Positions 8,321 to 32,026 of a stretch of 64,000 nucleotides of DNA are shown here, piece after piece (position 1 is the first letter of the stretch; each line of letters starts with the position of its first letter). This DNA comes from a virus: positions 1 through 64,000 of the IMG/VR virus record IMGVR_UViG_3300048014_000353. One strand, written 5' to 3'. Below the pieces are notes generated by a model. The model ran no database searches. It saw only the letters and a program-made list of their open reading frames with translations, and had not been told where the DNA came from. Position numbers and translations under genes: made by a program.

Positions 8321-9937
8321 GTGGCTGTCCCCGTCCCGAGTGCGCTGTCGAAGCTCGACACGAAGGTCCTGTCCTCGAAGGAGCAGGTCGATCTGGCCGT
8401 GCGCGCCAAGGCCGGCGACGTTGCCGCGCGCGACAAGCTGATCCAGCACAACCTGCGCTTCGTCTGGAAGATCTCCCAGAAGTACATCCGACGGCGTCGG
8501 ACGACAGAGATCGACGACCTCGTGAGCGAGGGGGTGCTCGGCCTGATGACGGCCATCGACCGGTTCGAACCCGAGCGCGGTTTCGCCTTCATCACGTACG
8601 CGAGCAACTGGGTCCGTCACCATATCAGCCGGCGCGCCAGCTACGATCGCAGCATGGCGTACGTGCCCGTGCACGCGAGCGATGCGGCGCGCAACGTCGC
8701 CACCCGTCGCCACGAGCTCTTCGCCTTGGGGCTCGAGCCCGAGGAGGAGGAAGAGATTCTCGTCAAGGAATTCGGCGCGAAGGCCGTGCTGGTCGAGCGC
8801 AAGACCTCCGTGAACGGCGTGTCGCTGGATGCGGAGATGGGGGAGGACGGGGGTCTCACGCTCTACGACGTGCTTCGACTGGAGGGCGACGGGGGCGACG
8901 CCATCGCGGACAAAGACCTCGACGACCACATTCGAGCGGTCATCGAGCGCGTACGACGCCGCACGCACGACGAGCGCAAGCTCGCCATCCTCGACCGTCG
9001 ACTGCTCGGGAGGGAGACGCTGGCCGACATCGCCCAAACATTCGGGTGCTCACGCGAGCGAATCCGACAGCTGGAGGCCGAGGTGGTCGCGCTCCTGAAG
9101 CGCGAGATCCAAGCCTCCATTCCCGAAGAAGCGCACGATCGCGCGCGACCGCGACCGCGGCGGAAGACGGAGAGATCCAAAGATCGGGTGCGGGACTCGA
9201 TCACCCGCGCTATCTCGCAGCGGGGTGTTGCCGAGGTGCCCATTCCGGCGGTGCGATCGGTGGAGGTCGCGGCCAATGGACTGCGAGTCGGCCAAGTGGT
9301 GGGGGCCGTACCCAAGGACAGTTCCACGTTCCGTCGAAATTTACCGGTTCAGTGGTCTGACAAGGCGCCCGCTACCTCCGTCGTACGCGCTGCGCCGTCC
9401 CCGGCGCCCCCCGAACCGTGTGCCTCACCCAACGAGACGCTGCCCATGCCGAAGAAGAAGAGAGTCCTCAACCCGAGCACCCAGGAGATCGCGCGCAGGT
9501 ACGAAGCGGGCGAAGACCCGCGCGAGATTGCCAAGGTGATGGGAAAGCCCGAAGCGTCGGTGCGCGCCAAGGTCTCCGTTCTCCGGAGAAGCGGCATCAT
9601 TCATCGAACCCCGAAGCGACCGAAGGCCGATGCCGTGCCCGTCGCAACTCCTACCGCGAAGCCCGCGGCCGTCCCGAAGAATGGATTGACGTGGCTCGAT
9701 GCCCAGTCGGGCGACGTTCTGGGCGACGCGACGTCCATCGTGACCACCCTACGAGGTCCGAAGAAGTCGCCGGCACCCGTGCCGCTCGCGCAGGAGCCGT
9801 CGTTGGAAGGGACGACACCTGAAACGCAAGGCGGCGATCCCTTCGTGGCCCAGCTGCTTAAGCGACGCGAGGATCTGCAGCGGAAGATCGAGTGGATCGA
9901 TCGCGCCATCGAAGCGCTCCGGATGGCGACGCTGTGA
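8321..9937 (+). CDS. Sigma-70 family sigma factor with a long C-terminal extension (extra HTH and coiled coil)
   Basis: Region 2 (ARDKLIQHNLRFVWKISQKY, DDLVSEGVLGLMTAIDRFEPERGFAFITYASNWVR) and region 4 (ETLADIAQTFGCSRERIRQLE). Confidence 0.88.
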   Translation: MAVPVPSALSKLDTKVLSSKEQVDLAVRAKAGDVAARDKLIQHNLRFVWKISQKYIRRRRTTEIDDLVSEGVLGLMTAIDRFEPERGFAFITYASNWVRHHISRRASYDRSMAYVPVHASDAARNVATRRHELFALGLEPEEEEEILVKEFGAKAVLVERKTSVNGVSLDAEMGEDGGLTLYDVLRLEGDGGDAIADKDLDDHIRAVIERVRRRTHDERKLAILDRRLLGRETLADIAQTFGCSRERIRQLEAEVVALLKREIQASIPEEAHDRARPRPRRKTERSKDRVRDSITRAISQRGVAEVPIPAVRSVEVAANGLRVGQVVGAVPKDSSTFRRNLPVQWSDKAPATSVVRAAPSPAPPEPCASPNETLPMPKKKRVLNPSTQEIARRYEAGEDPREIAKVMGKPEASVRAKVSVLRRSGIIHRTPKRPKADAVPVATPTAKPAAVPKNGLTWLDAQSGDVLGDATSIVTTLRGPKKSPAPVPLAQEPSLEGTTPETQGGDPFVAQLLKRREDLQRKIEWIDRAIEALRMATL

Positions 9938-9939
9938 CC

Positions 9940-11310
9940 GATTGAATCCCCGCGTGTGCGGGGGACGGCGAGGGTCGTGACCATGTCGTGAGCCAATGCA
10001 TGGCCCATCCCCGTGCGTACGGGAAGCACGCCGGCGCGTGCAGATCGCCACCTTGCCGTCGCGGCCTTATCCCCGTGCGTACGGGGAGCACTACGAGGCC
10101 GAGGCCGCTGGTCCGGGTAGGTATGGCCTATCCCCGTGCGTACGGGGAGCACGACGTCGACTACCCCGCGGTTCCAGGCGTCGTCGGCCTATCCCCGTGC
10201 GTACGGGGAGCACACTTCGAGGGGGAGCTGTCCGATCAGGACAAGCGGCCTATCCCCGTGCGTACGGGGAGCACGACGTCTCGGACTTGAGGCGGCGGCT
10301 GGGGGGCGGCCTATCCCCGTGCGTACGGGGAGCACGTCGAGCTTCCCGCAACGGATCCAATCGTTGCGGCCTATCCCCGTGCGTACGGGGAGCACGTCAC
10401 GGAGCGCTGTGCCACACACGTTCATGACGGCCTATCCCCGTGCGTACGGGGAGCACGAGGCCCGCGTAGCGCGCGGACGCGATGAAGGCGGCCTATCCCC
10501 GTGCGTACGGGGAGGACTCGCACCGCTGCAACTCCGTCTTGAGCACCGGCGGCCTATCCCCGTGCGTACGGGGAGCACAGCCCGACGAGGCGCTCGTCGT
10601 TCCGACGATGCGGCCTATCCCGGTGCGTACGGGAAGCACAGCCGTTGAGCACGCCGATCGGCGACAGCCGCCGGCCTATCCCCGTGCGTACGGGGAGCAC
10701 GTGGCGGTCGGCCGCTGAGCGCGTGAGATGGTCGGCCTATCCCCGTGCGTACGGGGAGCACAAGACCTCATTCCGGCGCAGTGCGCTACGAGGCGGCCTA
10801 TCCCCGTGCGTACGGGGAGCACTGCAGATCCATCTGTTTGACGACGACTACTTCCGGCCTATCCCCGTGCGTACGGGGAGCACTCGTCGGCACGACGCCG
10901 CTGCCGACGACGCGCCGGCCTATCCCCGTGCGTACGGGGAGCACTCTTGAAGCCCGGCGCACTTCTCGTCCTCTCGCGGCCTATCCCCGTGCGTACGGGG
11001 AGCACGGCGTGAAGCGGAGCTCCGCGGCGGCAGACCACGGCCTATCCCCGTGCGTACGGGGAGCACCGTCAATGTTGAATGGCATGTTCGTGAACTTCCG
11101 GCCTATCCCCGTGCGTACGGGGAGCACGACGACGAGAACGCCGATGGAGCAGGAGATGACGGCCTATCCCCGTGCGTACGGGGAGCACTGCGCGCGCGCC
11201 ACCATCTGCTCAAGCGCTACCGGCCTATCCCCGTGCGTACGGGGAGCACTTGGGGGCGACGATCAGGAACGTGCGTGCGTACGGCCTATCCCCGTGCGTA
11301 CGGGGAGCAC
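9940..11310 (-). CRISPR. Type I-E CRISPR array: 23 repeats (22 near-consensus plus 1 degenerate terminal) and 22 spacers
   Basis: 29-bp repeat GTGCTCCCCGTACGCACGGGGATAGGCCG (minus strand) at about 61-bp period; repeats start at 9940 (degenerate), 10001, 10062 ... 11221, 11282. Spacers are 32 nt (one is 31). Repeat variants cluster at the leader-distal end. Confidence 0.98.
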
Positions 11311-11354: not shown

Positions 11355-11657
11355 TCAAGGAGCATGCGGACCTGTCGGATGTCCACGTCGTCGTACGAGA
11401 AACAAGCCTTCGACTTCAACCGACTCGTAAGCCGAGGCCCCTTCGGAGCGAAACACGAACCCCTGCTCGTTGCGGGCGGAATGGACCATCGCGCACGTCC
11501 CCTGCCGGCGAGCCGCACGGACGGCTTCCCATAGGCGGTCCCGCACGCGTGCCGAGAGGCTTCCTGCGAAGACGCCTGGAGCGACCTCGATCATCCACCG
11601 CGCCAGGTTTCCACGAACGGACGGACGAACGCGACGCACCACGATGACGACCATCAT
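11355..11657 (-). CDS. cas2: Type I-E Cas2
   Basis: MMVVIVV...SVRGNLARWMIEVAPGVFAGSLSARVRDRLWE...NEQGF; start overlaps the cas1 stop. Confidence 0.93.
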   Translation of the reverse strand: MMVVIVVRRVRPSVRGNLARWMIEVAPGVFAGSLSARVRDRLWEAVRAARRQGTCAMVHSARNEQGFVFRSEGASAYESVEVEGLFLVRRRGHPTGPHAP

Positions 11658-12592
11658 GGATCGTCGCTCTCCTCCTCCACGCTCGTCGCAAAGTTCTGGG
11701 CTCCTGGGACCTCCCCTTCGGGTCCCCAAAGTAAGACGCGCGCCTCCGACGCTCTCTCGTCGAGCATTCGATCGCCAATCAAGTGCTGGATGTCGGGAAT
11801 GATGCGGTCCAAGAGACCACTTGCGTAGAACCGATCCCGACTCGCACATCGCACGAGCGAATCTAGATTCGAGGCGCTTCGATTCTCGGCGACGACACGA
11901 AACGCGAGCGGTAGAACCATCTCGATCTTGTAGAGGTCGGCGATGTCGTACACGAAGGCGAGCGACTTGCCGGTGTGGAGAAAGCCAAGACTTGGACTGA
12001 ATCCGGTGGCGACGATCACCGAATGGCAGACGCCGTACAGGCAGGCATTCGCCGCGGAGAGCGCCCGATTGACAGGATCGGCGTGCTCCCAAGCCCCGTT
12101 TAGCTTGCGGCCCTTCCACGCGACGCCCGTTTCGCGTCCCACCTTGGCGTAGGCCTCTCGAACACGTACGCCCTCGCGCCCACGTGCCTGTTCGATGCTC
12201 GTCGCTCCGAGCGACTCGCCAAACCTTCGCTCGTACATGCGTCGAACGACGTCCAGACGGCGGCCGGGATCCGCCCATGCCTTCACTTGCGCGAGCAGAT
12301 TGGTCGACCGGCGGGTTTCGCCCGTCCCGCTCGCGTAGAAGCGGACTCCCTTTTCCCCCGTCCAGACGACCGAGCAGCCATTGTCCGCGATCGACATCAT
12401 GGCCGCGTGCGTGATCGACGTGCCCGGCCCCAGCATCAGCACGCAAAGAGACGAGACGGGAACTCTCGTCTCTCCGTTCACATCGATCACCACGAGCGCA
12501 TGGTTCTCCCGTTCGATCTTTGCGTGCTCGAAGTAGGCAAAGGACCAGCTCTCCGACACGCGCGGAAGGGACTGGAGATCAACGCGACTCAC
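11654..12592 (-). CDS. cas1: Type I-E Cas1, catalytic residues intact
   Basis: LMLGPGTSITHAAM, RGREGVRVR (E), GFLHTG (H), FVYDIADLYK (D); GTG start at 12592. Confidence 0.96.
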   Translation of the reverse strand: MSRVDLQSLPRVSESWSFAYFEHAKIERENHALVVIDVNGETRVPVSSLCVLMLGPGTSITHAAMMSIADNGCSVVWTGEKGVRFYASGTGETRRSTNLLAQVKAWADPGRRLDVVRRMYERRFGESLGATSIEQARGREGVRVREAYAKVGRETGVAWKGRKLNGAWEHADPVNRALSAANACLYGVCHSVIVATGFSPSLGFLHTGKSLAFVYDIADLYKIEMVLPLAFRVVAENRSASNLDSLVRCASRDRFYASGLLDRIIPDIQHLIGDRMLDERASEARVLLWGPEGEVPGAQNFATSVEEESDDP

Positions 12593-13224
12593 GCCGCCGC
12601 TCGAGCCACGAGCAAGAGCCCGCACCCATAGGACTTCCCGCGGCCGATCCCGTTCTCCAGCGCCTTGCGCATCGTGCCCGTGTCCACGACCCGCAGCACC
12701 CCATCGAAGCACACGGGGTGCTCGACGTGAGAGGGCGATGGCCCACTCCCCCACTCTTCTTCGCGCGAGCACGGCGCCGCGAGCGCCGACTCGACCTCAA
12801 AGCCGCTTCGCGCTCCGGCGCGCGCGAGCCACGCCCCCAGAGCGTCGTCGCCGCGAAGGGCCACGCGCCGGGTCGAGCGCGAAACCGACTTCACGACGTT
12901 GCCGACCAAGCGGAAGCGGAACCGCTGCCCCGTGCCCACGGCCTCGAGCACCGGCGCGAGCGACTTGACCTCCGGAGGCGCCGCGAACACGGCGCGCGGC
13001 CAGCCGCTCCAATCGGGTTCGGCTTTTGATTGGACCAGCAGCGTCAGGCGGCCGTCGCGCTCGACCGTCAACCGATGCAGGATGCGCGCGCGAGATCGCG
13101 CGTCGGGGACCCGTTCGACGCCGGGAAAGAGACGCCAGAGCGCCCCGTGCATCACGAGAGGGCTGCGGACCCACGGCCAGACCTCCGAGGACGCGGGGTT
13201 GAGGAAGATGCGAGAGAGGTTCAT
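12589..13224 (-). CDS. cas6e: Cas6e (Cse3) crRNA endonuclease
   Basis: MNLSRIFLN...MHGAL...FRFRLVGN...FDGVLRV..., G-rich loop GIGRGKSYGCGLL. Confidence 0.95.
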   Translation of the reverse strand: MNLSRIFLNPASSEVWPWVRSPLVMHGALWRLFPGVERVPDARSRARILHRLTVERDGRLTLLVQSKAEPDWSGWPRAVFAAPPEVKSLAPVLEAVGTGQRFRFRLVGNVVKSVSRSTRRVALRGDDALGAWLARAGARSGFEVESALAAPCSREEEWGSGPSPSHVEHPVCFDGVLRVVDTGTMRKALENGIGRGKSYGCGLLLVARAAA

Positions 13225-13898
13225 GCGATTCTCCGTGCGGCGGGCGGGTCGGTCCAGACGGTCTCCACGTACCGGCGCCGGAAGACCCGCGGTTGGAACG
13301 TGACCGGGACGTCGTCGCGCGGTTGGCCGCGCTCGGGCGTCGACTCGATCAGAAGACGAAGCGTGTCGTCGCCGGCGCGCTCGGCGCGCGGCCACTTCCG
13401 CACGCACTCGCTCGCCGACGCCTGCTCCAAGGATTCGAAGATGGGGCACGCCGGAACGCAGGCCTTGCGGCCCAGGCTCAGCGGCCACACCGGCGAACGG
13501 AGCGCATCCTTCACGCGCACAAGGAGCGCCTCGTCGTGCTCGAGCGCGACGAGGAAGCTCGCGTCGGCGAGGTAGTAGCGCTCCGTGGGGACGGTGTGCT
13601 CCGCCCGCCGCGTCTTGGCGTCGTAGACGGCATGGGAGAGGTCCCCGAACGCGCCACCTCCGGTCGTGTGGTAGTCTCGTTCGATCGCCCCCTCGCGGTC
13701 GACACGCACGGTCATCGCGCCCTCGGCGAGCTGCCCGATGGTCGTCCGGTCGTCGCGCGTGACCCCCATCGCTGCGCAAAGGAGACCAACAACCCCCGAC
13801 TTGGTCGGTTCGCGCTCGGTTGTGAGGATCGAAAATCGCGCCTGCGATCCCCAACTCTGGAACGGTCCCTCGAGTCGTAGGAGCAGCGTGGCGTTCAC
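13221..13898 (-). CDS. cas5e: Cas5e (CasD), no HNH fusion
   Basis: LLLRLEGPFQSWG...PTKSGVVGLLCAAMG...ERYYLADASF...LSLGRKACVP; about 225 aa. Confidence 0.95.
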   Translation of the reverse strand: MNATLLLRLEGPFQSWGSQARFSILTTEREPTKSGVVGLLCAAMGVTRDDRTTIGQLAEGAMTVRVDREGAIERDYHTTGGGAFGDLSHAVYDAKTRRAEHTVPTERYYLADASFLVALEHDEALLVRVKDALRSPVWPLSLGRKACVPACPIFESLEQASASECVRKWPRAERAGDDTLRLLIESTPERGQPRDDVPVTFQPRVFRRRYVETVWTDPPAARRIA

Positions 13899-15019
13899 TT
13901 GTCCTCGTTCTTGTGGAGAAGCGAACGAACGCGGTTGAGCGCGGTCTCGATGACCGCGTCGACGCTCGGGACCATGCGAATCCCCACGTCGTCCCGCGTG
14001 GCATCGCGGTCCTGGCAAGCCGCCGCGAATTCGTTGATGCGCGTCCCGTACATCGTGTGGACGCGCGCCCAGTACCGCTCGAGCGCGAGGATCGACTCGC
14101 CCACGATGTCGTGTTCGCGCGGGCGCACGGGCTGCGCGAAGGCGTTGGTGAGCGCGAAAGGTTGGCCTTCGTGGGCAACGACGAGCACGTAGCTCGGCGG
14201 GTTGTGCGCGGCGAAGCTGGTCTGTTTGCCCGTGGGGATCGCGTGGACCATCGCGCGCAGCCACGCCTCCGCCGTGGGCTCGACGAGCTTGTCGAATTGA
14301 AGGTTCGTGCGGAGCAGCGGCACGTTCATCGTCGCGTACCGGTACTGGCACGAGGCCACGAACTGCGACGAGTCCATGTGCGCGCTGCCCGTCTCGCCCT
14401 TGGGCTGCAGATCGTCCACGGCCGTGAAGAAGTCGAAGTCGTTGTCGGCCGCGTGGGTCGAGAGGCTCTGCGCCGTCTGGACGGCGCCGGCGACGCCCCA
14501 GTCGTCTCCCTCGGCGATCATGCGCCCGAATGCGGCGACGTCCGGCGTGCGCGTTGCGTCCTTGAGGAGCGCCTGCACGCGCTCGGTGACGGTCTTCGGA
14601 ATCGTCTTCTTGTCGATCCCTGTCCACGATTCGTGGACAACCCCGGCGATGCTGCGGATGCGGTCCTTGGGGAGGAACACCAGCGTCGCGGTCTTCTGCG
14701 TCTTCTCGTCGATCTTCAGCCCCGCCGCGGCGATGACGCGGGCGGCGACCTCGAGCGCGACGGCCGGATCGTGGTCGGCCGCCAAGATCTCGGCGACCGC
14801 ATGCGGGATGCGCTTGGTGCGGACCCCGAGCGCCGAGGTCTCCAACTCGCTCTCGGCGGCGAAGTGGTTGCGGATGGCGCGCTTCGAGCACTGGCTCGAG
14901 ATCCGCGCGCGCCGCGCACCGGCGAAGACGGCGTCCTTGGGAGCGCCGTTGTCGTCGCGGTTGAGGTTCGACGGCGCGAAGTTCTGCAAGATGTGAACGT
15001 CGATGCTGAGCGTATTCAT
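13895..15019 (-). CDS. cas7e: Cas7e (CasC)
   Basis: IDVHILQNFAPSNLNRDDNGAPKDAVFAGARRARISSQCSKRAIR...DFFTAVDDL. Confidence 0.97.
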   Translation of the reverse strand: MNTLSIDVHILQNFAPSNLNRDDNGAPKDAVFAGARRARISSQCSKRAIRNHFAAESELETSALGVRTKRIPHAVAEILAADHDPAVALEVAARVIAAAGLKIDEKTQKTATLVFLPKDRIRSIAGVVHESWTGIDKKTIPKTVTERVQALLKDATRTPDVAAFGRMIAEGDDWGVAGAVQTAQSLSTHAADNDFDFFTAVDDLQPKGETGSAHMDSSQFVASCQYRYATMNVPLLRTNLQFDKLVEPTAEAWLRAMVHAIPTGKQTSFAAHNPPSYVLVVAHEGQPFALTNAFAQPVRPREHDIVGESILALERYWARVHTMYGTRINEFAAACQDRDATRDDVGIRMVPSVDAVIETALNRVRSLLHKNEDK

Positions 15020-15522
15020 GTCGTCTCCTTGGTGGGTTCAGTCGGTTCAGTCGGTTCGGTCGTGGCTGTGGTGGGCGCCCAGTACTCACGCGCCCATTGC
15101 CGTCGGGTGGCGTAGTCCTCCCAGCGGAGGAGGTCGTCGAAGAGCCGGTGCCAGTCGATCGCGATGTCCTCGCCCTTCGCGAGCGTCACCGCGCGTCGAA
15201 GATGCGTCGGGAGCTCGGACCGCGGCGCAACGAGCAGCGCGGTGAAGCGCGCTTCGCTCGCGTTGCCCCCGCGCCGTTCCGCGACCCGTCGAAGGGCGGC
15301 GGCAAGCGGCGTTGAGCCGCGCTTGGGGTATTCGCCGAAAAGGCAGGCGACGAGCATCGAGACGTCCTCGACGTGCTTCGAGGCGGGGACGGGGAGGAAC
15401 GGCGAGATGACGGGGTAGAGTGCCAGCGGTTGCGTCCAGCCGCGCCGCAGCGCGCCTAGGACCGCGCCGTCGCCGCGTTCTGCGGCGCGCGCGAGCGAGT
15501 CAATCAGTCGAAACGTGTTCAT
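15016..15522 (-). CDS. cse2: Cas11e (Cse2/CasB)
   Basis: LGALRRG...EARFTALL...HLRRAVTLAKGEDIAIDWHRLFDDLLRW...RRQWAREYW. Confidence 0.92.
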   Translation of the reverse strand: MNTFRLIDSLARAAERGDGAVLGALRRGWTQPLALYPVISPFLPVPASKHVEDVSMLVACLFGEYPKRGSTPLAAALRRVAERRGGNASEARFTALLVAPRSELPTHLRRAVTLAKGEDIAIDWHRLFDDLLRWEDYATRRQWAREYWAPTTATTEPTEPTEPTKETT

Positions 15523-17002
15523 CGGTACTCTCCTCAGGCGTAGGTGTGGTGGCACCGCGCAGCTTCGAGCGCAGCACCGATTCGGCGATCGTCACGGCAC
15601 GCAAAGCCCGCACGGAAACCCCCGCGCGCGCCCGGGTCGAGAGGTGCAGAGCGCTCCGCGCGGTGGCTTCGGCGTCGCGCAGGAAGAGGTCAACGGCCGC
15701 TTCGCCCGATTCGGTCCACGCAAGCTCGAGAAGGAGCCGTTCGAACGGAGCGGCCATCGCCCCCCAGAAGAACCCGCGGCTTCGCGCGCCGTTGGCGGTC
15801 GCCTTCACCGTCTCCTTGTGCGCGCTCGGAAGCGCCGCGTGCGCCCACATCCACGTCGCGACCCGGAGCGCGTCGTCGATGACCCCGAGCCGTTCCATTG
15901 CACGCTGCAAGAGCGCGAGCTTTGCCTCGCTGGCCAGGACCTCGGGTGTGACCGGGAGGATCTCGGCGCGCGCAAGGTCGATGCGTTTCTGGTAGGAGGC
16001 GAGGCCGTAGACCGCGAGCGAGATGGCCTTGTCGGGGCCGATGATGTCGCGGACGCTCGCCACATGGTCGAGCACCGCGGGACGGCTCGTGGTGTCCGAC
16101 GAGCGAAGGATCGCGTGCGCCGAGCCCCACGCCGCGCGCTCGCGGTGAAGGCCGATCGGGCGCCACTCGTCCTTGATCTTGACGCGCGCACACATGATGT
16201 CCGGCTCCTCGTCTTCGAGCTCGTCGCCGGCGAGGTACGCGATGCCGTCCACGTAGCCTTCGGGCGACAGCGAGAGCGCCATGCGGCGCGACTGCCACGT
16301 GAGGCGATCGAGCGGCCCGTGCGCGCGGCGCGCGCACTTCGCCGTGGCCTCATGGTCGGCCTCCCAGGCGGGCACGTCCTGTCGGACGTAGGGGGAGGGG
16401 ATCACGTTGAGCATCAGGGTCTCGAACAGGTTTGCTCCTTGTGGAACGATGACGCACGAGCCGCACAGCGGCGCGGCCTTGCCTGACTCGCCCATCGTCA
16501 TGCCGCCCGGCGCGAAGGCCTGGTACGCGAGCAGCGCGCTCGCGGCGCGAGCCGGCGACAGCCGGTCGTTCTCCGCCGGGTCGCGCGCCTCGACAAAGAG
16601 GTGCACCGCCGCGCCGAAGTTGCACGTCTCCATCACGAGACGACGAACGATGTGAGGCCCCCCCTTCACACTCGAGCGCGCCGTGGACGACTGCATGAAC
16701 GGGCGCCCCTCGGCGAACAGATCGAAGCGCTCGCCCCAGCGATCGAAGTACGCGCGCACGGCGTTCTCCTCGAAGCGCCCACGCTTCCACGCGCGCTCCC
16801 ATTCCTTCTTGGAATGCGGACCTTGCAGAACGCGGTGCGCGAGCACGACAAGGAGCCGATAGACCGCGGCCGTCTCCACCGGGGAGAGTCCCGTGATCTC
16901 ACGAATTTCGTGGGCGTCCGTCAGGGACTCCACAAGGTTCACTGGCTGCTCCGTGCCTCCCTTGGATACCGTGAGCCAATGCACTCTGGAGAGGTTGAAC
17001 AT
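15500..17002 (-). CDS. cse1: Cas8e (Cse1/CasA)
   Basis: FNL..VHWLTV, ERFDLF...PFMQ, GANLFETLMLN, LTWQSRRMAL; about 500 aa with no HNH extension. Confidence 0.92.
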   Translation of the reverse strand: MFNLSRVHWLTVSKGGTEQPVNLVESLTDAHEIREITGLSPVETAAVYRLLVVLAHRVLQGPHSKKEWERAWKRGRFEENAVRAYFDRWGERFDLFAEGRPFMQSSTARSSVKGGPHIVRRLVMETCNFGAAVHLFVEARDPAENDRLSPARAASALLAYQAFAPGGMTMGESGKAAPLCGSCVIVPQGANLFETLMLNVIPSPYVRQDVPAWEADHEATAKCARRAHGPLDRLTWQSRRMALSLSPEGYVDGIAYLAGDELEDEEPDIMCARVKIKDEWRPIGLHRERAAWGSAHAILRSSDTTSRPAVLDHVASVRDIIGPDKAISLAVYGLASYQKRIDLARAEILPVTPEVLASEAKLALLQRAMERLGVIDDALRVATWMWAHAALPSAHKETVKATANGARSRGFFWGAMAAPFERLLLELAWTESGEAAVDLFLRDAEATARSALHLSTRARAGVSVRALRAVTIAESVLRSKLRGATTPTPEESTDEHVSTD

Positions 17003-17019
17003 GCGGCCCATACTGGGCG

Positions 17020-17037: not shown

Positions 17038-17061
17038 ACAAAGAAAGTAATCAACCTCGCC

Positions 17062-17223
17062 CTAAAGGGCGAGGCTTTGTTCCTGGCATAGCTGAGGACT
17101 CGAAGAAACTATGTGCTCTCCGATACCCAACCTGACAGCCGAAACGATAGGGCCGATTACTGGACCCCTGGATGCGATGTTGCGCGCGCCGACATGGTCG
17201 GCATGAGCAACGAACCCGCATCG
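17062..17223 (-). pseudogene. tnpB: tnpB C-terminal fragment
   Basis: RCGFVAHADHVGARNIASRGPVIGPIV: last zinc-finger Cys plus the RuvC-III xADxxxAxNI motif. Confidence 0.85.
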
Positions 17224-17721
17224 TCAATGACGGTGCTTGCGCAGGTAATTGATCGCTGCCGAGAGAACGCTGACGTCATCGTGTGCGAGCCCGAGCATAC
17301 GATTGCAGTTAGCGCAAAGCAGCCCACGCACGGTGCCGCATGCGTGGCAATGATCTACCGCGCTCTTGCCCGAACCAGCGGCCAGCGGCCGAGTACATAT
17401 TCCGCACGTCTCCCCGTCGTACGCGTACGTCGAGCCGTATTTGGCAACTTGAGCGTAGCAAGCGCGGCAGATGCCGCTTCCGATCGTTCGCTCCGGCCTA
17501 GTTGGATGGCAGGCGGACGGTGGGTTGGTCTTCGCCTTTGCCAGCGAGTAGCACGATCGGCACACACCCGACCCGATGACGTGCTCGGCGCGTGCGGGGT
17601 GGCAAACGGAGCGTGCTCGGCGCGAGTCGAGCAACGCTTCGTAGCAAGGGCGACACCTTCCGCCTACGTAGTTCGGTCTGGTGGCGTGGCAGTCGGATGT
17701 CTTGGTCCTGGCGTGTCGCAT
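17224..17721 (-). CDS. Endonuclease VII-type (HNH fold) nuclease with three N-terminal Cys/His repeats
   Basis: Three CH(A/P)xR...G.CRxCY repeats, then CGIC...[35 protein letters not shown]. Confidence 0.88.
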
Positions 17722-17982
17722 CTATACGTCCGAGTCGAAGGCAAGATTGCGGATGCCGAGGTCGACGCCGAGCCAGCCTTCGGGATCGATGGGCGAGCCG
17801 TCGGGCACGTCGACGGTCACGAAGAGATAGAGCTTGCCCTTGCGGTAGACGAGGTCGGCCTGTCCTCGGACGCCGTCGAGCCGTCCGCGATGGTACGCGC
17901 CGATGGCGCACGGGACGACCATGCGTCCATCGAGAGCGAGCAGACTCACGCGATCGAGACCGTTCTTGAACGTGTAGATCCG
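17722..17982 (-). pseudogene. tnpB: tnpB internal fragment (up to RuvC-I)
   Basis: RIYTFKNGLDRVSLLALDGR...GQADLVYRKGKLYLFVTVDVP...WLGVDLGIRNLAFDSD, then TAG. Confidence 0.88.
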
Positions 17983-18036
17983 ACGGCGCTTCCTCCCCGG
18001 CCTGAAGGCCGAGGCTTCCGCGCCGGAGAATGGTGA

Positions 18037-19326
18037 TCATCGTGACGAGGGGAGGGAGGCCCATTCGGTCGGCGGCCACGTGCCGAACCGATCCCGGAAT
18101 TGAACCGCCACCGCGCTCGCCGAGCGTCCAAGTCGTCGCCCTTCGTTCCACATTGCTTCGTAGGACGCGCGCAGCGCACTCGGAGACGGGGGCAGCTGCG
18201 ACGAGCGCCGCGCGTCGGCGGCGTCGGTAACCGCGATGAGCGGCACGCCCACCACCTCTTGCACGAACGCCTCGCGCGCGACGTCTTGATCGGTCGGCGG
18301 CGTCGGCGGCGTCGGCCGGCCCATGCCGATGCCGGTGCCCGTCAACGAGTACTCGCGGTCACACGTCGGAAAGCCGTGCCGAATGGAGGAGCCGACCAGA
18401 TCGATGACGATCGCATCCAGCTTCCCAGCGCAGGCACGAAGACCGCGCCCCGTGGCCTGAAGGTACGTCGACACGTGGTCGCAGCCCTTGGCGAGGATGA
18501 TGCATCGAAGCTCCGGCACATCGATGCCCTCGGTCATCGTATCCACGTTCGTGATGACGCGCAGGCGCCCCTCGCGGAAGTCGCGCAACGCCTTCTCGCG
18601 CTCTTCGGTGGGGGTCTCCGCCGAGATGCACGCCGCGGGCACGTGGAGGCGGAAGCGCTCGGCGAGCGCTTCGGCGATCGCGACCCGCGCGCAGAACACG
18701 AAGGCCTGCGATCGGTTCGCGAGCGCGAGCCACGCCTCGACCGGGTCCTTCGCGAGATCCGCCCCGAGAAAACGCTCGGGCTGGTAGAGGCGCACGGGCA
18801 CGATGTACCCCTCGGCGAGCAGATCGCTGTAGTGAGCGGCGACGACGCTCTCCTCGAAGACGTCGCCGAGCGGGGAGCCATCGGCGCGCTCGGGCGTCGC
18901 GGTGAGTCCAACGCAGCGCACGCCAGGATATGCCTGGACGAGCTCTCGGTAGCTCTCGGCGACGTAGTGGTGGCATTCGTCAAGGACCAGAAGATCCGCC
19001 TGCGGGCGAAGGTCGCGCGCGAGCAGAGTCTGCACGGTGCCGACTTGGATGCGCGCCTCGGGATGGGCCGGATGCCCCGCCATCAACACGCCGACGTGAC
19101 CTTCGCCGAACCGCGCCGCCAAGCGCGCGGCGAGTTGCGAGACCAGGTCCCGTTGGTGCGCGACAACGAGCGCGCGCCGGCGGGGCGTGAGCAGAATGCT
19201 CGCCATCTCCGTCTTGCCCGCGCCGGTGGGCGCGATGAGACACACCGAGCGAGTCCCCGCGCTCCAGAGCGCCTCGACCTTCGCGCACGCGTCAACCTGG
19301 TAGAGGCGAGCTTCGCGCACTCCCAT
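18037..19326 (-). CDS. Superfamily 2 (DEAD/DEAH-like) phage helicase, no HD domain
   Basis: APTGAGKT, DECHH, GLTATPER, TEGIDVP, YLQATGRGLR. Confidence 0.92.
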   Translation of the reverse strand: MGVREARLYQVDACAKVEALWSAGTRSVCLIAPTGAGKTEMASILLTPRRRALVVAHQRDLVSQLAARLAARFGEGHVGVLMAGHPAHPEARIQVGTVQTLLARDLRPQADLLVLDECHHYVAESYRELVQAYPGVRCVGLTATPERADGSPLGDVFEESVVAAHYSDLLAEGYIVPVRLYQPERFLGADLAKDPVEAWLALANRSQAFVFCARVAIAEALAERFRLHVPAACISAETPTEEREKALRDFREGRLRVITNVDTMTEGIDVPELRCIILAKGCDHVSTYLQATGRGLRACAGKLDAIVIDLVGSSIRHGFPTCDREYSLTGTGIGMGRPTPPTPPTDQDVAREAFVQEVVGVPLIAVTDAADARRSSQLPPSPSALRASYEAMWNEGRRLGRSASAVAVQFRDRFGTWPPTEWASLPSSR

Positions 19327-19413: not shown

Positions 19414-19968
19414 TCACGTGCGCCCGCCGGCCCCGCGCGCGTGCGCGACCGACATTTGCGTCCACGCAGCCGCTTCGGGGTCTGATTCCGCCGCGCGCGG
19501 CGCGTCGGCTTCACTGTCCTCGTCGTCCTCGGATGGTTCGTGTGGCGGCAGCGCCGGGAACTTTCCCCCCGCCTCCACCCACGCGAGCAGATCGTGCGTC
19601 ATGCCGGCGATCGCCGCGTTGACGAGGTCGGCCCACTTCTCCAGCTGGCGCACGCGCGCCATCGTGGAGCGCGACAGACGCTTCTCCTTTCGGAGCTCGG
19701 CGGCGAGCTGCTCGGCGCTCGGCGTCGGCATCTGGCCCCCGCCGAAGTGTGTCCAGCCGAGCTCGCGCAGGCGGCGCACGGAGACGACGAGCCATCCTCT
19801 CCCGTTGCGTTGCAGAAGGTCGCCGTCTTCGAAGCGCCCGTGCCCCGACACCGCGTGCAGGTGGAACAGGCGCGCCCGTGTACGCTGCGTGCTCCAGCCC
19901 GCGTAGCGCGCGATGGTCGCGATCGAGGTCGGAACGTCCTGCGGGATGCCGCTTAGCGGATCTTTCAT
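19414..19968 (-). CDS. Hypothetical protein, possible HTH at the N-terminus
   Basis: SIATIARYAGWSTQRTRARL; start/stop coupled to the sigma gene. Confidence 0.5.
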   Translation of the reverse strand: MKDPLSGIPQDVPTSIATIARYAGWSTQRTRARLFHLHAVSGHGRFEDGDLLQRNGRGWLVVSVRRLRELGWTHFGGGQMPTPSAEQLAAELRKEKRLSRSTMARVRQLEKWADLVNAAIAGMTHDLLAWVEAGGKFPALPPHEPSEDDEDSEADAPRAAESDPEAAAWTQMSVAHARGAGGRT

Positions 19969-20804
19969 CCGACCCCCAGTCCTGCGGCCGCCCGCAGCTT
20001 CTCGAAGGCGCGCGTCTCGATCTGACGCACCCGTTCCCGCGAGATCCCCAAGCTCTCGCCGATCTCCCTGAGAGCCATCGGCTCGTCCGTCATCACGCGA
20101 TGGCCCACGATGCGACGCTCCCGCGCCGTCAGCGTCCGGAGAAGCTTCGAGACCTGACGATTCGTTGCGCGCGCATGCTCGCCTTCGAGCACGAGAGCTT
20201 CAGGCGTCGATGCCGGCCCCGGCAGGACATCGTAGAGGGTCGCTCCGTCTTCGCCGTCAGCCGTGGCCTTGGGCGCATCGAAGGAGACGTCAAGCCCCGC
20301 GGAGGCGAGGCGCGCGCGCGTCTCTTGCACCCACTGGACCGTGTACCCGAGTGCCGCGGCGGTCGCCGCCGCCGCAAGGTCGTCGCAGGGCTCGCGCGCG
20401 CCCGCGCGTTCGGCGGCGCGGAAAGCGAAGTGTTCCGACCGCTCCAGCCGGTGGAGTCCCGACAGCCCCCCCGTGGACTCGTGGACCAGGCGCGCCATGG
20501 CCGCGCGCGCGAACCCCGCCGCGAACGTCACGAACCGAACGCCCCGATCCGGATCGAACTTCATCACGGCTTGAAGGATTGCCCCCGCGGCCGCCGAGAA
20601 CAACTCGTCGGCCGGCAGGCCCGTCACCCGATGGCGCCGAAGAGCGAACCGAAGCATCGCCGGGAGTACGGAGACGACCAGACGGTTCCGCGCCGCGGCG
20701 TCCCCCCCGAGAGCCCGGCGCGCGACGTCGCCGTCCTCTTCGGGGCCGAGCGCGTGACACTTCGCGATCTGCGCGGCGATCGGCGCGAAGGTCGAGCGGC
20801 TCAT
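19965..20804 (-). CDS. RpoH/sigma-32-like sigma-70 factor
   Basis: ARNRLVVSVLP...AVMKFDPDRGVRFVTFA...DVSFDAP...LTARERRIVGHRVMTDEPMALREIGESLGISRERVRQIETRAFEKLR. Confidence 0.9.
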   Translation of the reverse strand: MSRSTFAPIAAQIAKCHALGPEEDGDVARRALGGDAAARNRLVVSVLPAMLRFALRRHRVTGLPADELFSAAAGAILQAVMKFDPDRGVRFVTFAAGFARAAMARLVHESTGGLSGLHRLERSEHFAFRAAERAGAREPCDDLAAAATAAALGYTVQWVQETRARLASAGLDVSFDAPKATADGEDGATLYDVLPGPASTPEALVLEGEHARATNRQVSKLLRTLTARERRIVGHRVMTDEPMALREIGESLGISRERVRQIETRAFEKLRAAAGLGVG

Positions 20805-21721
20805 TTGGCCATCTTGCGGGACAGAAGGTCTTGAAGCGCGAGAAGGCCCTGAAGCGCCGCGACCCGATCTTCGGTGGTTTTCGGTGGAGGGCGCGTCGCC
20901 AGCACACGGCTCATCGACCGAATGCGATCCTTGCCGCGGCGATCCCCGTGCTTCATTCGGTCGGCCTCGACCGCGTGGCGGATCTCGACCTCGTTCCAGG
21001 CCTTGTCGAGCAGACGTCCCGCGCCGCTGAGGACGCGATCGGCTTCCGCCGCCATCGCGACGCGTAGATCCTCGTACCCCTTGCGCGAGGCCACCGCCGT
21101 CGCCCGCTCGACCACGTCGCCGGCGATCGCCTCCAGAAAACGGCCATCGCGCTCCCACGCGTCTACGTGCGCGGCCAGCGCGAGCCCCGGGGCGAACCCG
21201 AGCCCGGGAAACTCCGTCGTGCCCGACCGCTGCGCGGCGCGGTGCGCCTCGATGAGGTTCTCGTACATCTGCTCCACGTGTTCGGCCTCGGCGCGCGCGA
21301 GCTCCCCCGTCCACGGGTTCTCGGCCATGAGCCAGGAGCGCCACACGATCCGCGCGCGCTCGCGCGCGATCTCCGTGAACCGCAGCAGCGGCGCGAGCTC
21401 CTGGAATTCCTCCCAGGGGTCGTCCTGCCGACGCGCACCGTACGATCGTTCCAGACGCCACCAGGCGTCGGCGGCGGCTTCGGGACGCTGCACGAAGAGC
21501 TCTCCCTTCACCTCCTCCACCAACCGTGCGCGCCGCGTGGCTTCCTGCGACTGGTGAACGTAGCGCTCCTGCGCCAGCAACTTGCCCGGCTCGGTGGAGG
21601 GGGACGAGAACGCCGCGTAACTGGGGCTCGCGATGGGGACGGTCCCCGCCGAGTCGGTGAAGTACCAGGCGAGCTCCCGGAGGCGCTCGTTCCGAAGCCG
21701 GAATCCGCGTTGGTACAGCAT
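20801..21721 (-). CDS. Hypothetical protein
   Basis: 306-aa ORF translationally coupled on both sides. Confidence 0.7.
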   Translation of the reverse strand: MLYQRGFRLRNERLRELAWYFTDSAGTVPIASPSYAAFSSPSTEPGKLLAQERYVHQSQEATRRARLVEEVKGELFVQRPEAAADAWWRLERSYGARRQDDPWEEFQELAPLLRFTEIARERARIVWRSWLMAENPWTGELARAEAEHVEQMYENLIEAHRAAQRSGTTEFPGLGFAPGLALAAHVDAWERDGRFLEAIAGDVVERATAVASRKGYEDLRVAMAAEADRVLSGAGRLLDKAWNEVEIRHAVEADRMKHGDRRGKDRIRSMSRVLATRPPPKTTEDRVAALQGLLALQDLLSRKMAK

Positions 21722-22422
21722 CAGACTCTCCCCTCCTCTTCAGCGAGGCAGGGCGCGGCGTCGGGCAGCGGCGCGGGGGGCACTTGCGCGCGAGACTCGG
21801 CTGCCGCCTCGCGCGCCGCCCGCGCCGCGGCAAGCTTGGCCCGACGCTTCTGCTCCCGTCGTTCCTTTCGCGCGTCCTGGACGGCCTCGTGGTGACGGAT
21901 CTGCGTCGGGTCCGCCGCGTCGGCGGTGACGGGCCGCCCGAGGTCCTCGTGCATCGCCTGGACGACCTTCTCGTCGCGCAGCCGCACGAAGACGCGGCTC
22001 TCCATCGTCTGGCGCACGGCGTCGCGCGTAATGTTCAGGCGTCGCGCGATCCCGTACAGCGTCATCGGGCCGCGATCGGCCGCGTCGAGCGCGCACGTCT
22101 CGGGGATCTGGTCCCACTCCAAGGCCGGAAAATTCAGAAGGACTCGGTTTCGGCTACGGCTCTCCAAGTAGAGATGGTGCCGGCACGAGACGAAGGGGCA
22201 CGGGCGATAGTGCGCCGCTCCTCCCGGGAGACACTCGGCGCGTGTGTCCGGAAGCTGACGCCCTTCGTACTCTGGGGCGTCGCCGCGATGGGACGCGACA
22301 TCGTCCGGCCCCACCTTGACGATCCGGCCTTTAGGCGTCCAGTCCCGCGGCGGCAGCGGATGGCTTGCGTCGTCCTCGACGAGGGGAAGGCGACGCCGGT
22401 TCTCTCGATCGCGCGAATGCAA
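21721..22422 (-). CDS. Cys-rich domain plus sigma-70 region 4-like HTH protein
   Basis: RPCPFVSCRHHLY...ETCALDAADRGPMTLYGIARRLNITRDAVRQ. Confidence 0.7.
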   Translation of the reverse strand: MHSRDRENRRRLPLVEDDASHPLPPRDWTPKGRIVKVGPDDVASHRGDAPEYEGRQLPDTRAECLPGGAAHYRPCPFVSCRHHLYLESRSRNRVLLNFPALEWDQIPETCALDAADRGPMTLYGIARRLNITRDAVRQTMESRVFVRLRDEKVVQAMHEDLGRPVTADAADPTQIRHHEAVQDARKERREQKRRAKLAAARAAREAAAESRAQVPPAPLPDAAPCLAEEEGRV

Positions 22423-28199: not shown

Positions 28200-29291
28200 C
28201 TAGCCGCCGAACTCGCGGAAGCTGTCCTCGACCAGGTCGACGCAGAGCTCGTCGAGCTTCGCGCGATCGGGCGCGTCGGGAAGCTTGGACGCCTTGGCGA
28301 TCGCGTCGAGCTCCGCGTTCTCGCGGTCGCTCCACTCGATGAGCTGCTCGATGGTCCAGGCGCCCCGTCGGATCGCGAGCAACTCCTCGGCGTCCGGTCG
28401 TCGCACGAGGACCTTGCCGGTCGTGAGGATCTCCCGGCACATCTTCAGTAGCCGAACGAGATGCATGCCGTGCTTGAGATCGTAGCCGAACTTGGCCTCG
28501 AGCTCCGCGCGGGCCGCATTTCGGTTCACCTTCCACGCCTGGTACTGTTCCCACTCTTTGTGCCGTGCGTGGTACTGGCGCTCCCGGTCGAGAAGCTCGA
28601 TGAAGTTGGACTCGAACCCGACCGCGCGCGCCGCGCCGATCCAGAGGTCACCGGTCGTCACGTGCATCTCGGCGATGGAGTCGGCCATCTTGTCCGCGAT
28701 GAGGAGGCGGCTCGCGGGGTCAAGGTCTCCGACGAAGTCGAGGTTCCAGTCCTTCAGCTTTTTCTCGACCGCGGATCGGGCGGCGGCGATCTGGTCCTGC
28801 GGGATGACCGTCCGCTCGGGTAGACCGAACTCTGCACGCGTCGGCGGCGCCGTCATCGGGTCGCGCAGCCAGCGCATGTGCCCTCGGATTCGGCGAAGCT
28901 GCCCGGTCGCGTACCCCGCGTAGGTGTGCTTGGCCTTCTTCGAGAGGAAAAGATCGCGCGCCGCACGCAGACGCTCACCGAGCGGCGTCATCACGAGCAC
29001 GTCGCTGTCCTCGACGAAGAGGATCTCAAGTACGTTCGGGTTGCAGTCGGCCGCGAGCTGCATGAACTTTCGCAGGCCGAAGATGGTCACGTCCGGCGAC
29101 TTCATCTCGGCCTGCTCAAAGGCGTGCGCGAAGCCGTGGAAGTAGCTGCTCGGCGGGATGGCAACGCCGCGGAAGTCTTCGTCGCTGGTCGCGATGTTGG
29201 TTCCATAAGCATGCGATCCGTGCCGTGCGAAGAACACCGTGCGGCGCGTGAGCCATGGCAGGTTTCCCGTGTACGGAATGCAGTACGTCAT
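28200..29291 (-). CDS. Nucleotidyltransferase, Pol-beta superfamily (RlaP/Nuc-transf-like)
   Basis: HGSHAYGTNIATSDEDFRGV...CNPNVLEILF...GYDLKHGMHLVRLL. Confidence 0.85.
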   Translation of the reverse strand: MTYCIPYTGNLPWLTRRTVFFARHGSHAYGTNIATSDEDFRGVAIPPSSYFHGFAHAFEQAEMKSPDVTIFGLRKFMQLAADCNPNVLEILFVEDSDVLVMTPLGERLRAARDLFLSKKAKHTYAGYATGQLRRIRGHMRWLRDPMTAPPTRAEFGLPERTVIPQDQIAAARSAVEKKLKDWNLDFVGDLDPASRLLIADKMADSIAEMHVTTGDLWIGAARAVGFESNFIELLDRERQYHARHKEWEQYQAWKVNRNAARAELEAKFGYDLKHGMHLVRLLKMCREILTTGKVLVRRPDAEELLAIRRGAWTIEQLIEWSDRENAELDAIAKASKLPDAPDRAKLDELCVDLVEDSFREFGG

Positions 29292-29559
29292 GCGGCTTTC
29301 CGTTCCTTGTCCTTCACGACCGCGACCATACGGCACTCCGCGCACGACTTGAAGCCGACCGTGACCGGGTCCCCGCAGCGGCAAACGCCGACGCGCTTCT
29401 TGTTCCAGTAGGAGCGTCGGTTGGATGCGCGTCGCGACTTGCGACACGGAGCACAGAGACACGCGTCTCCGCGCGCGATCGGGCGCGCGCCGCACTCGCA
29501 CATCCCCGCGGCCCTCATCCGAGCGCGGAACGACTTGACGTATTCGTAGGGCATCGCGC

Positions 29560-29851
29560 TCACGGTCGCCTCCGGAGAAATTCGCGAATCTCGTCGATGG
29601 ACACCGGCGCGTAGGCCCACTGATCGACCCCCACGTTCAGCATCCCGTTCTGGCTCGCCGGCTCGATGCGGTACCTCCAGAGTTCGTGGACGTGTCCGTG
29701 GAGAAGCGCGCGCCCGGGAGCCATCGGCGGCCGGTACTCGGGGTAGCGCGGCTCCGCCGAGTGGTCGCCCACCGCAGGAAAGTGGCAGAGGCGAAACTCC
29801 TCGTAGTCCACCCAGTTGCCGTGGATGGTCGCGAAGCCGAGCCGGTGGTAG
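29560..29851 (-). pseudogene. Metallophosphoesterase, C-terminal half (split by the IS1 element)
   Basis: LCHFP, LLHGHVH, LNVGVDQWAYAPVS. Confidence 0.85.
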
Positions 29852-29913
29852 GGCACTGGTCGGTTTTGAAATGACGCGGCTCGTGCCAACGGCGGCGGGG
29901 CACTCTCTCGCCC

Positions 29914-30237
29914 ATGGCGATCCTGTTGGAGCGGGTCACGTGGCGGAAGGCGAAGCAGTTCACGGCAGGGGCGACGACGCCGGACCTTACGGCGGACGAA
30001 GTCGCCAACGCGAGGCGCGCGCTTCGTGTCCTACGGACACGTCACGGTGGCACCCGCGCGCTCGCGGACGCGATTGGCGTAAGAGTCGCGACAGTACAGA
30101 ACGGGATGAAACCACGTCGGAAGGTCGGCGTCGGGCTCGCGCTACGTCTTGCGCGGCTCGCGGGCGTGCCGCTGGAGGACGTACTTAGTGGGGCTTGGCC
30201 GAAGCATGGCTCGTGCCCTATGTGCGGCCGCTGTTGA
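29914..30237 (+). CDS. XRE-like HTH passenger protein
   Basis: RALADAIGVRVATVQN...VGLALRLARLAGVPLEDVL. Confidence 0.65.
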   Translation: MAILLERVTWRKAKQFTAGATTPDLTADEVANARRALRVLRTRHGGTRALADAIGVRVATVQNGMKPRRKVGVGLALRLARLAGVPLEDVLSGAWPKHGSCPMCGRC

Positions 30238-30421
30238 TGCCGCGCACGATGCGGGCGCCCGTTACCAGCGTCTCCCTAGCCCACGAAGTTACCGGCTTTC
30301 CAGCTAGACGCGCGGCCTCGACGATTTCGCCACGTTCCTCTTCGCTCAATCGCAAGGTGAACACCGTTGCGCGTGCTTCCCCCTCTGGCAGAGGGGGGCG
30401 CCCCATGCGCTTCGCCTTCAC
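30218..30421 (-). CDS. Ribbon-helix-helix/CopG-like protein
   Basis: MGRPPLP...VFTLRLSEEERGEIVEAARLAGKPVTSWARETL; coupled to the transposase stop. Confidence 0.7.
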   Translation of the reverse strand: MKAKRMGRPPLPEGEARATVFTLRLSEEERGEIVEAARLAGKPVTSWARETLVTGARIVRGINSGRT

Positions 30422-31263
30422 TGGGCATCCGTCCGGCTAAGCGCGGCATCCAGCAGCTCGTCCATGCTCCAGACGTGCTGCGCGACGCCAGCGGCCATCG
30501 CGGGCGTGCAGCGAATCGTCGAGTGGATCCGGCAGAGGTTGTAGTGCGCGAAGTGCAGCGCGACAGCGGCGCCATGGTTTTCCAATTTCTTCGAGTGCGC
30601 GTTCGTCAGCCGCGTGAAACGGCGGATCTGCATCCTCATCGTCAAGTTCTGGCGCTCGACGTAGCTCGTCGAGACCAGATCGGCGTCCGGCGAGCCGTAG
30701 ATCGGCGTCTTCTCCGTCGAAGTCACCCGCGGGGGCGAGTACCTACCACTGCCGGCGGCCTCGGCCTCGAACTCCTTTACGATCTGCGCGTAGTGCACGC
30801 CGCGCGACGCGAAAGCATCGCCGATCGCGTTGACGTACATGCGCAGACCGTCGGTGCTGATCTGCACGCGGTAGCGGAGGCGTGATGCGAGGTCCGAGAT
30901 GAACACGTTCGTCGTCTCCGCGTTGCGCTTGCCGGTGAGGAAGCACGGGATCAGCTTCGTGTCGGCGTCGATCGCGACATACGTCCACGTGTCGCCCACG
31001 CGCGAATCGTCGTCGTTGTCGGTCACACGCCTCTGCTTCTTCTGCACGAACGCCCACAGCTCGTCGATCTCCAGCCGCTTGCACGAGAGGTCACGCATCG
31101 TTTCGTCGAGCAGCGCCGCGCAGCCGTCGCCGACGCGCACGAGCAGACTGAGGACCGTCTCGCGACTCACGCCGACGAGACGCTCCGTGCCGCGCACGGA
31201 GACACCCTCGACGAGCGCGCTGAGGACCGCGATCTGCTTGGAGCGGGGGAGCACGTTTGCCAT
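30418..31263 (-). CDS. IS1-family DDE transposase
   Basis: HTH (EGVSVRGTERLVGVSRETV), LEIDELW, ISTDG, TSYVERQNLTMR..RRFTR.T..HSKK.ENH, TPAMAAG. Confidence 0.9.
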   Translation of the reverse strand: MANVLPRSKQIAVLSALVEGVSVRGTERLVGVSRETVLSLLVRVGDGCAALLDETMRDLSCKRLEIDELWAFVQKKQRRVTDNDDDSRVGDTWTYVAIDADTKLIPCFLTGKRNAETTNVFISDLASRLRYRVQISTDGLRMYVNAIGDAFASRGVHYAQIVKEFEAEAAGSGRYSPPRVTSTEKTPIYGSPDADLVSTSYVERQNLTMRMQIRRFTRLTNAHSKKLENHGAAVALHFAHYNLCRIHSTIRCTPAMAAGVAQHVWSMDELLDAALSRTDAQ

Positions 31264-32012: not shown

Positions 32013-32026
32013 CCAGGAGGCGGAAG

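Follow-up and report, generated by a model that had tools for sequence, protein, structure and literature searches.

A spacer in the CRISPR array of a large tailed phage encodes the consensus peptide of a family of IS1-type transposases, and its best match elsewhere in the same genome lies in a transposase gene of that family. We favor, with a probability of roughly 70%, the reading that this spacer is a genuine acquisition from an IS1-family transposase gene of the myxobacterial mobilome, and that its 26/32 match to the resident transposase gene reflects family resemblance and not a working control circuit. We infer that this phage, or a previous carrier of the locus, acquired the spacer, which has since remained close to the old end of the type I-E array; the locus encodes Cascade, Cas1, and Cas2 without Cas3. 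Later, a different member of the IS1 clade, a 3.76-kb cargo transposon with ~75–80% DNA identity to its sequenced relatives, would have inserted into a phosphoesterase gene of the phage. The 26/32 match would in that case be inherited from the kinship between the spacer's source and this cousin, the spacer itself not having been taken from the resident copy. Because there is no Cas3, the match should be free of cost to the phage. Contact of Cascade with the site may be made through the perfect 8-nt seed and the GAG beside it; given the block of four mismatched nucleotides that follows the seed, neither a stable R-loop nor a resulting roadblock to transcription is likely.

A type I-E CRISPR-Cas locus without cas3 in a tailed phage

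The window (the whole 64,000-nt stretch of DNA analysed here) belongs to a 138.5-kb contig that constitutes an IMG/VR virus record with an estimated completeness of ~82%. With genes for a large terminase, a portal, two head proteins, and a tail sheath, and with 29 tRNA genes, the contig is that of a large tailed phage of soil or moss origin.

The array occupies 10002–11310 on the minus strand and comprises 22 clear repeats and 21 spacers in a 61-nt period, each repeat consisting of 28 nt plus one PAM-derived base and each spacer of 32–33 nt. Read on the minus strand, the repeat begins with GTGCTCCCCG, contains a 6-bp stem, and ends with GATAGGCC followed by one variable base; as this is the type I-E form, the minus strand is the crRNA sense, and it is also the strand on which cse1, cse2, cas7, cas5, cas6e, cas1, and cas2 are encoded. 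In type I-E systems the last base of the repeat is derived from the PAM (the G of AAG in E. coli), and the base at −1 is accordingly G in 19 of the 21 units. The leader side of the array runs from 11311 onward, beside cas2. At the other end, degeneracy has affected the repeats at 10002 and 10064, and what may be a 23rd repeat, strongly degenerate (16/28 identical) with its hairpin kept, can be made out at ~9941–9968, starting right after the stop codon of a sigma-like ORF (8321–9937); together these mark the low-coordinate end as the trailer. Two long sigma-70-like proteins flank the CRISPR-cas locus, encoded by that ORF on the plus strand and at 19965–21833 on the minus strand, and both contain regions 2 and 4 plus large additional parts.

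The spacer under study (10092–10123, minus strand) is the 20th of the 21 counted from the leader, and with the trailer placed at the low-coordinate end it is the second or third oldest. An earlier note on this DNA, made from the letters alone, had called it an old spacer, a description that both its position and the degenerate flanking repeats bear out. In the crRNA sense, it is preceded by a consensus repeat (10125–10152, minus strand) that would give the 5′ handle, and followed by a repeat (10064–10091, minus strand) that is degenerate outside the stem; since the 6-bp stem is kept, a Cas6e hairpin is still possible there. When repeat, spacer, and repeat were folded as one RNA, the two repeats paired with each other. 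The base at −1 of this spacer, at 10124, is A, which may reflect a noncanonical acquisition or a mutated old repeat.

The cas operon (11355–17011, minus strand) was recognized through Pfam and NCBIfam matches, all near full length except that of Cas1. Its genes, all on the minus strand, are cse1 (approximately 15500–17011; Cse1, E = 4.7e-80), cse2 (approximately 15016–15555; Cse2, 2.2e-20), cas7 (approximately 13895–15019; Cas7, 3.2e-104), cas5 (~13221–13900; Cas5, 2.7e-44), cas6e (~12589–13224; Cas6e, 2.7e-40), cas1 (~11654–12590; Cas1, 1.3e-19, for which a partial stretch only is reported), and cas2 (~11355–11654; Cas2, 5.7e-28). The locus thus has the repeat, spacer, and period form of type I-E together with the gene set from cse1 to cas2. 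The type I signature gene, cas3, was not found: no Cas3_HD match occurs anywhere in the 138.5-kb contig of this ~82% complete genome, and the cas3_core model reaches at best 13.8 bits in it, on a generic helicase motif. Near the position expected for cas3, and on the strand of the cas genes, lies a gene for a 429-aa SF2 helicase (18037–19326, minus strand), separated from cse1 by the interval 17047–18035. The helicase is RadD/XPB-like and, judged by its sequence, is not Cas3. The claim that the locus has no Cas3, also made before, holds within the contig.

The locus is distant from everything to which it was compared. Among 5.8 billion proteins, none exceeds 54% identity to its Cas7, the nearest relatives being six proteins at 52–54% identity, and IMG/VR contained no related Cse1, repeat, or close Cas7, with one 34%-identity match in a 420-kb viral contig. 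An array with the phage's repeat was absent from 401 Myxococcota genomes, IMG/VR, the phage set, and the plasmid set. Having found no close relatives of Cas7, Cse1, or the repeat, we regard the locus as a divergent I-E lineage and not as a visibly recent capture. The distance bears on the idea that the spacer entered the phage together with an array in which a bacterium, or some previous carrier of the cas locus, had already acquired it, in which case it would say nothing about conflict between phage and transposon. Such a history would suit a spacer whose trailer-proximal position and degenerate flanking repeats place it among the oldest units, and cellular arrays commonly contain transposon-derived spacers (Shiimori et al. 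2017; PMC5737086). We nevertheless consider it rather unlikely: with neither such a repeat array nor a close Cas7 or Cse1 in the Myxococcota, IMG/VR, phage, and plasmid collections, recent capture from a sampled host is not visible, and the phage locus, having both Cas1 and Cas2, could acquire spacers itself.

A partial protospacer within the resident transposase gene

In the crRNA sense, the spacer is identical to the plus strand at 30740–30771 in 26 of 32 positions. Positions 1–8 match perfectly, the mismatches fall at spacer positions 9, 10, 11, 12, 15, and 31, and GAG stands at the PAM position (30737–30739, plus strand), directly 5′ of this partial protospacer on the crRNA-identical strand. 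The match is in frame within the ORF at 30418–31263 (minus strand), where it covers codons 164–175 of 281, and the two encoded peptides are YEAEAAGPGRY for the spacer and FEAEAAGSGRY for the resident gene. The earlier note had reported this match, and its quoted sequences, the count of 26/32, the perfect seed, the 5′ GAG, and the agreement of the reading frames were all reproduced here. It had also pointed out that the variant A at 10124 completes a tyrosine codon, TAT; this is correct, but a G at −1 would give TAC, which is also tyrosine, and so the point does not discriminate.

How much weight the match can bear on its own depends on the standard applied. When all 21 spacers were aligned exhaustively against both strands of the 138.5-kb contig, 26/32 was the top self-match, with 24 as the runner-up, and neither the 10,000 mononucleotide nor the 1,000 dinucleotide shuffles of the spacer contained a case that reached 26; the exhaustive alignment and the shuffled controls that had been proposed as checks therefore both come out in favor of the match. 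Natural 32-mers of the same contig score at least 26 elsewhere in 0.7% of cases, or 0.4% without true repeats, a rate at which ~0.1 such spacer per array would be expected by chance. By itself, then, the self-match is suggestive and not decisive, and it is the evidence from homologues that settles the origin of the spacer. With 26/32 identities and a mismatch block at positions 9–12, the pairing also falls short of self-targeting in the sense of a full or near-full match beside a functional PAM, the GAG having been assessed by E. coli PAM rules, which may not be those of this divergent system.

The spacer encodes the consensus of a probably myxobacterial transposase family

The gene that holds the match (30418–31263, minus strand) is a single ORF of 281 aa, the only copy in the contig, and encodes an IS1-family DDE transposase. 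It scores 29.8 bits against Pfam DDE_Tnp_IS1 (PF03400), above the cut-off of 24.1, and matches the NCBIfam IS1 model NF033558 with E = 1.6e-17, at 64 bits, which is under the equivalog cut-off of 100; its homologues run to thousands, many of them named IS1 family transposase (JGI naming). The organization of classical IS1, with insA and insB′ joined by a −1 frameshift, is not seen. The single ORF, the presence of cargo genes, and the length of 3.76 kb instead place the element in a single-ORF, cargo-bearing branch of IS1.

The exact peptide encoded by the spacer, YEAEAAGPGRY, occurs in 28 of the best 120 homologues and in 9 of the 11 closest (82–86% identity), and it is the consensus among those nearest to the resident gene; the variant FEAEAAGSGRY of the resident copy was found in no other of the best 120. 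A degenerate DNA pattern for YEAEAAGPGRY was then scanned against species-representative genomes, metagenome contigs, and viral contigs. It occurred on 5 genome contigs, all from Myxococcales or delta-proteobacterial MAGs, and on 17 metagenome contigs (soil), with 0 matches in the viral contigs. The flanks of all 22 occurrences are alike, with I/L/V-x-K-x before the peptide and SPP or SPT after it, and every one of these loci encodes a homologue of the resident transposase, at 60–84% amino-acid identity.

At the DNA level, identity to the spacer reaches 30/32 at one of these loci (L014) and 29/32 at two (L005 and L019), the differences being synonymous only. The exact 32-mer had 0 matches in the metagenome contigs, and no perfect protospacer was present among the 22 genome and metagenome pattern matches or in the viral contigs. 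The earlier note had named a perfect protospacer in IS1 homologues as the check on its proposal; none was found, and what the scan delivered are homologous IS1-family sites of up to 30/32. Where spacer and resident gene differ nonsynonymously, which they do at two places, the spacer has the family consensus, Y and P, and all other differences between them are synonymous changes at third positions. From the consensus peptide and the 22 of 22 homologous sites, we conclude that the spacer was copied from a cousin element of the IS1 clade, which upholds the proposal that it came from a sister IS1 element. Active transposons act as hot spots at which spacers are taken up (Shiimori et al. 2017; PMC5737086), which offers a simple route for the acquisition.

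These observations effectively refute a chance origin, in which a GC-rich spacer happens to resemble a GC-rich coding stretch, rich in Ala, Glu, and Gly, with a (GGCCTC)x2 low-complexity core. The 0.4–0.7% of natural contig 32-mers that reach at least 26/32, and hence the ~0.1 match expected for 21 spacers, would leave some room for coincidence, and GC3 periodicity favors in-frame alignment. The shuffles (0 of 11,000), the consensus Y and P at both nonsynonymous sites with only synonymous differences elsewhere, and the fact that all 22 occurrences of the codon pattern fall at the homologous site of IS1-family genes speak against it so consistently that we give it almost no credence.

The degree of the mismatch is likewise what kinship would produce. 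In a codon alignment with ten full-length relatives, the resident gene shows 64–79% DNA identity, and the protospacer is averagely conserved within it, its window ranking 291 of 812. Given such divergence in the family and an average stretch of the gene, 26/32 (81%) is what a cousin element gives.

A recently inserted cargo transposon

The resident transposase gene lies within an IS1-family cargo transposon of 3,756 bp (29852–33607), whose limits are given by terminal repeats, a target-site duplication, and contig break points. IS1-type ends start with GGnnnTG, and the 19-nt left terminal inverted repeat (29852–29870, plus strand) starts with GGCACTG; the right one (33589–33607, minus strand) is its perfect complement. 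On either side stands the 8-bp target-site duplication GGTGGTAG (29844–29851 and 33608–33615, both plus strand), a length within the 8–9 bp typical of IS1. Apart from the transposase gene, the element carries a two-gene module (31350–33091) that includes a gene for a protein with an HTH and an M78-peptidase domain. Conserved blocks near both ends of the transposon recur beside the transposase in other loci.

The insertion splits a metallophosphoesterase-like phage gene on the minus strand into a C-terminal half (29560–29851) and an N-terminal half (33616–33950; Pfam Metallophos, E = 9e-4). In silico removal of the transposon and one copy of the duplication restores a single frame of 208 codons with metallophosphoesterase motifs and high third-position GC. 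The split gene is adjoined by a gene for an RlaP-type (PF10127) nucleotidyltransferase at 28200–29501 (minus strand).

Sequence from other samples corroborates these limits. In run X12, from another moss metagenome, contig pieces with 0–1 differing letters cover nearly the entire transposon, and these contigs leave the phage sequence exactly at 29852 and 33607 and continue into other flanks. The left phage–transposon junction is bridged by a contig in a further run. In run X13, contigs of the phage flanks end at 29840 and start at 33619 with most of the transposon uncovered, and no contig bridging an empty site was seen in that run. Considered jointly, the inverted repeats, the duplication, the restored frame, and the X12 flanks identify a bona fide, recently inserted cargo transposon. 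The same transposon sits elsewhere in the community; that other location is plausibly a host, and the donor of the transposon seen in X12 is probably the host. If it is, fetching the X12 transposon contig would link phage and host.

The X12 pieces also help to judge whether the resident site could be an escape variant, in which case the resident transposon would descend directly from the element that gave the spacer and would since have been selected for the six differences to evade Cascade. Two amino-acid changes, Y to F and P to S, do lie inside the protospacer, and the resident peptide is unique within the 120 closest homologues, as might be expected after such selection. The number of mismatches, however, equals the DNA divergence across the family in a region of average conservation, and at 14–18% protein divergence about 2 changes are expected in 11 residues, so that selection for escape is not needed to account for them. 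Moreover, the transposon pieces that differ by 0–1 letters carry the site itself with 0 differences in another genomic context, which means that the variant did not arise in this phage, and without Cas3 there would be little to evade. We therefore hold escape to be highly improbable and retain family resemblance as the explanation of the 26/32 match.

Prospects for silencing by a Cas3-less Cascade

An imperfect match can in principle be put to use without cleavage. In such a case, the Cas3-less Cascade of the phage, guided by this crRNA, would bind the IS1-family transposase genes of the phage or its host, lower their transcription, and so restrain transposition. Several features of the site would permit this: the seed is perfect over positions 1–8, the GAG next to it is a working PAM in E. 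coli, no cas3 was found in the contig, and relatives with 29–30/32 matches exist in likely host lineages. Of the 20 positions past the mismatch block, 18 pair, and a bypassed R-loop, with some binding or repression, may therefore form. The crRNA would furthermore base-pair with the coding (non-template) strand of the transposase gene, here the minus strand. When Cascade is so oriented in E. coli lacking cas3, it moderately represses expression within transcribed regions (Luo et al. 2015; PMC4288209).

Other features weigh in the opposite direction. Natural gene repression by Cascade would call for a guide at a promoter or 5′ region, whereas the site here, at codons 164–175 of 281, is 490 nt inside the ORF. 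Mismatches 9–12 follow directly on the seed, and, as the base at position 12 is flipped out in E. coli Cascade, three contiguous effective mismatches abut the seed. The PAM position has GAG and not the optimal AAG. Even with perfect matches, repression in transcribed regions of E. coli is only moderate (Luo et al. 2015; PMC4288209). Cascade association there needs as few as 5 bp of seed pairing together with an AAG PAM, but off-target binding of this kind left local expression unchanged in Cas3-deficient cells, and protospacers mismatched across the middle positions lost Cascade binding (Cooper et al. 2018; PMC5904413). Finally, only 1 of the 21 spacers is transposon-related, and it is situated at the decaying end of the array. 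On this comparison with E. coli, silencing of the resident transposase is unlikely.

A broader version would have the phage retain its type I-E system, nuclease-free but competent for adaptation, in order to silence transposons under RNA guidance. The phage would sample the IS1-family elements that attack it in myxobacterial hosts, Cascade would form roadblocks on the non-template strand of transposase genes and so damp transposition into the phage, and mismatches at the family level would be tolerated. Were this true, it would give viruses of prokaryotes a counterpart to the silencing of transposons by small RNAs; we think it very unlikely, and continue to read the match as a by-product of kinship that is probably without regulatory function.

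Comparison with known systems

CreTA modules (type I-B) and the scaRNA of Francisella Cas9 repress under the guidance of partial complementarity. They resemble the present case in that partial pairing of guide and target avoids cleavage and could regulate a gene. Their guides, however, are dedicated, conserved RNAs acting at promoters, whereas ours is a spacer like any other, located where the array is decaying and directed to the middle of an ORF.

A further parallel is offered by E. coli when its type I-E Cascade acts in the absence of Cas3 (Luo et al. 2015; PMC4288209; Cooper et al. 2018; PMC5904413), a situation sharing the subtype, the lack of the nuclease, pairing with the non-template strand, and a perfect seed beside a PAM that is functional in E. 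coli. Engineered repression in that system relied on full matches and worked best at promoters (PMC4288209). With its mid-gene position and mismatch block 9–12, the site considered here would be nearer to the class of sites that are bound but inert (PMC5904413).

Cellular arrays with spacers derived from transposons and insertion sequences (PMC5737086) are similar in that the spacer comes from a DDE transposase gene, the IS family is active in the same community, and a related copy of the element is present in the array's own genome. They differ in that our array is carried by a phage and its resident match is only 26/32, and in that, without Cas3, neither autoimmunity nor the elimination of cells with active transposons would follow.

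Phages with CRISPR-Cas systems that lack interference or acquisition genes have been described (Al-Shayeb et al. 2020; PMC7162821), and the present locus has in common with them that it contains no recognizable nuclease, that an unrelated helicase gene lies near the expected position of cas3, and that its spacers would be expected to target hosts or rival elements. The helicase at 18037–19326 recalls in particular those type I-C variants of phages that have “a helicase instead of Cas3” (PMC7162821). Almost all of the phage systems surveyed in that work were without Cas1 and Cas2 (PMC7162821), whereas this phage retains both together with an array of 21 spacers, and the only target family that can be identified for it is a transposon, with neither host genes nor rival phages among the recognizable targets.

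There are thus precedents for spacers taken from transposons, for partial self-matches, and for phage CRISPR loci that lack a nuclease (PMC5737086, PMC7162821), and as it stands the locus leaves existing knowledge unchanged. What is unusual is that a phage locus has Cas1 and Cas2 yet no Cas3, and that a cousin of the remembered transposon sits freshly in the same phage. Three mobile layers, the phage, its CRISPR locus, and a cargo transposon, here meet in a clean and datable way: the array remembers a family of transposons, and a cousin from that family has just disrupted a gene of the phage. Phage-borne arrays with Cas1 and Cas2 can therefore hold transposon-derived spacers, and the resident 26/32 site and the consensus site form a concrete pair for asking how a Cas3-less Cascade acts at imperfect targets.

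The remaining spacers and other self-matches

From the one match, the earlier note had generalized that the array records conflict with transposons. This is not supported for the array as a whole: 1 of its 21 spacers is transposon-related, and the others match neither this family nor anything in the collections searched. Compared with the 22 IS1 loci, none of the other 20 exceeds 22/32; against the 401 Myxococcota genomes they give noise-level matches only, against the phage set nothing, and against plasmids only repeat-level matches to other I-E arrays.

The second-best self-match also leads to the transposon. The spacer at 10701–10733 matches 32655–32686, within the HTH and M78-peptidase gene of the same element, at 24/32 with a perfect 8-nt seed. 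As a candidate for a second transposon-derived spacer it was rejected, since the peptides disagree (4 of 11 residues), the PAM position has ACC, and ~6% of natural 32-mers reach 24/32; we judge this match to be due to chance.

Among the 32-mers sampled from the contig, those from ~63.4–64.8 kb and ~101.3–101.6 kb matched some other place in the contig at 29–32 of 32 positions, which indicates an internal repeat that lies partly beyond the 64-kb window.
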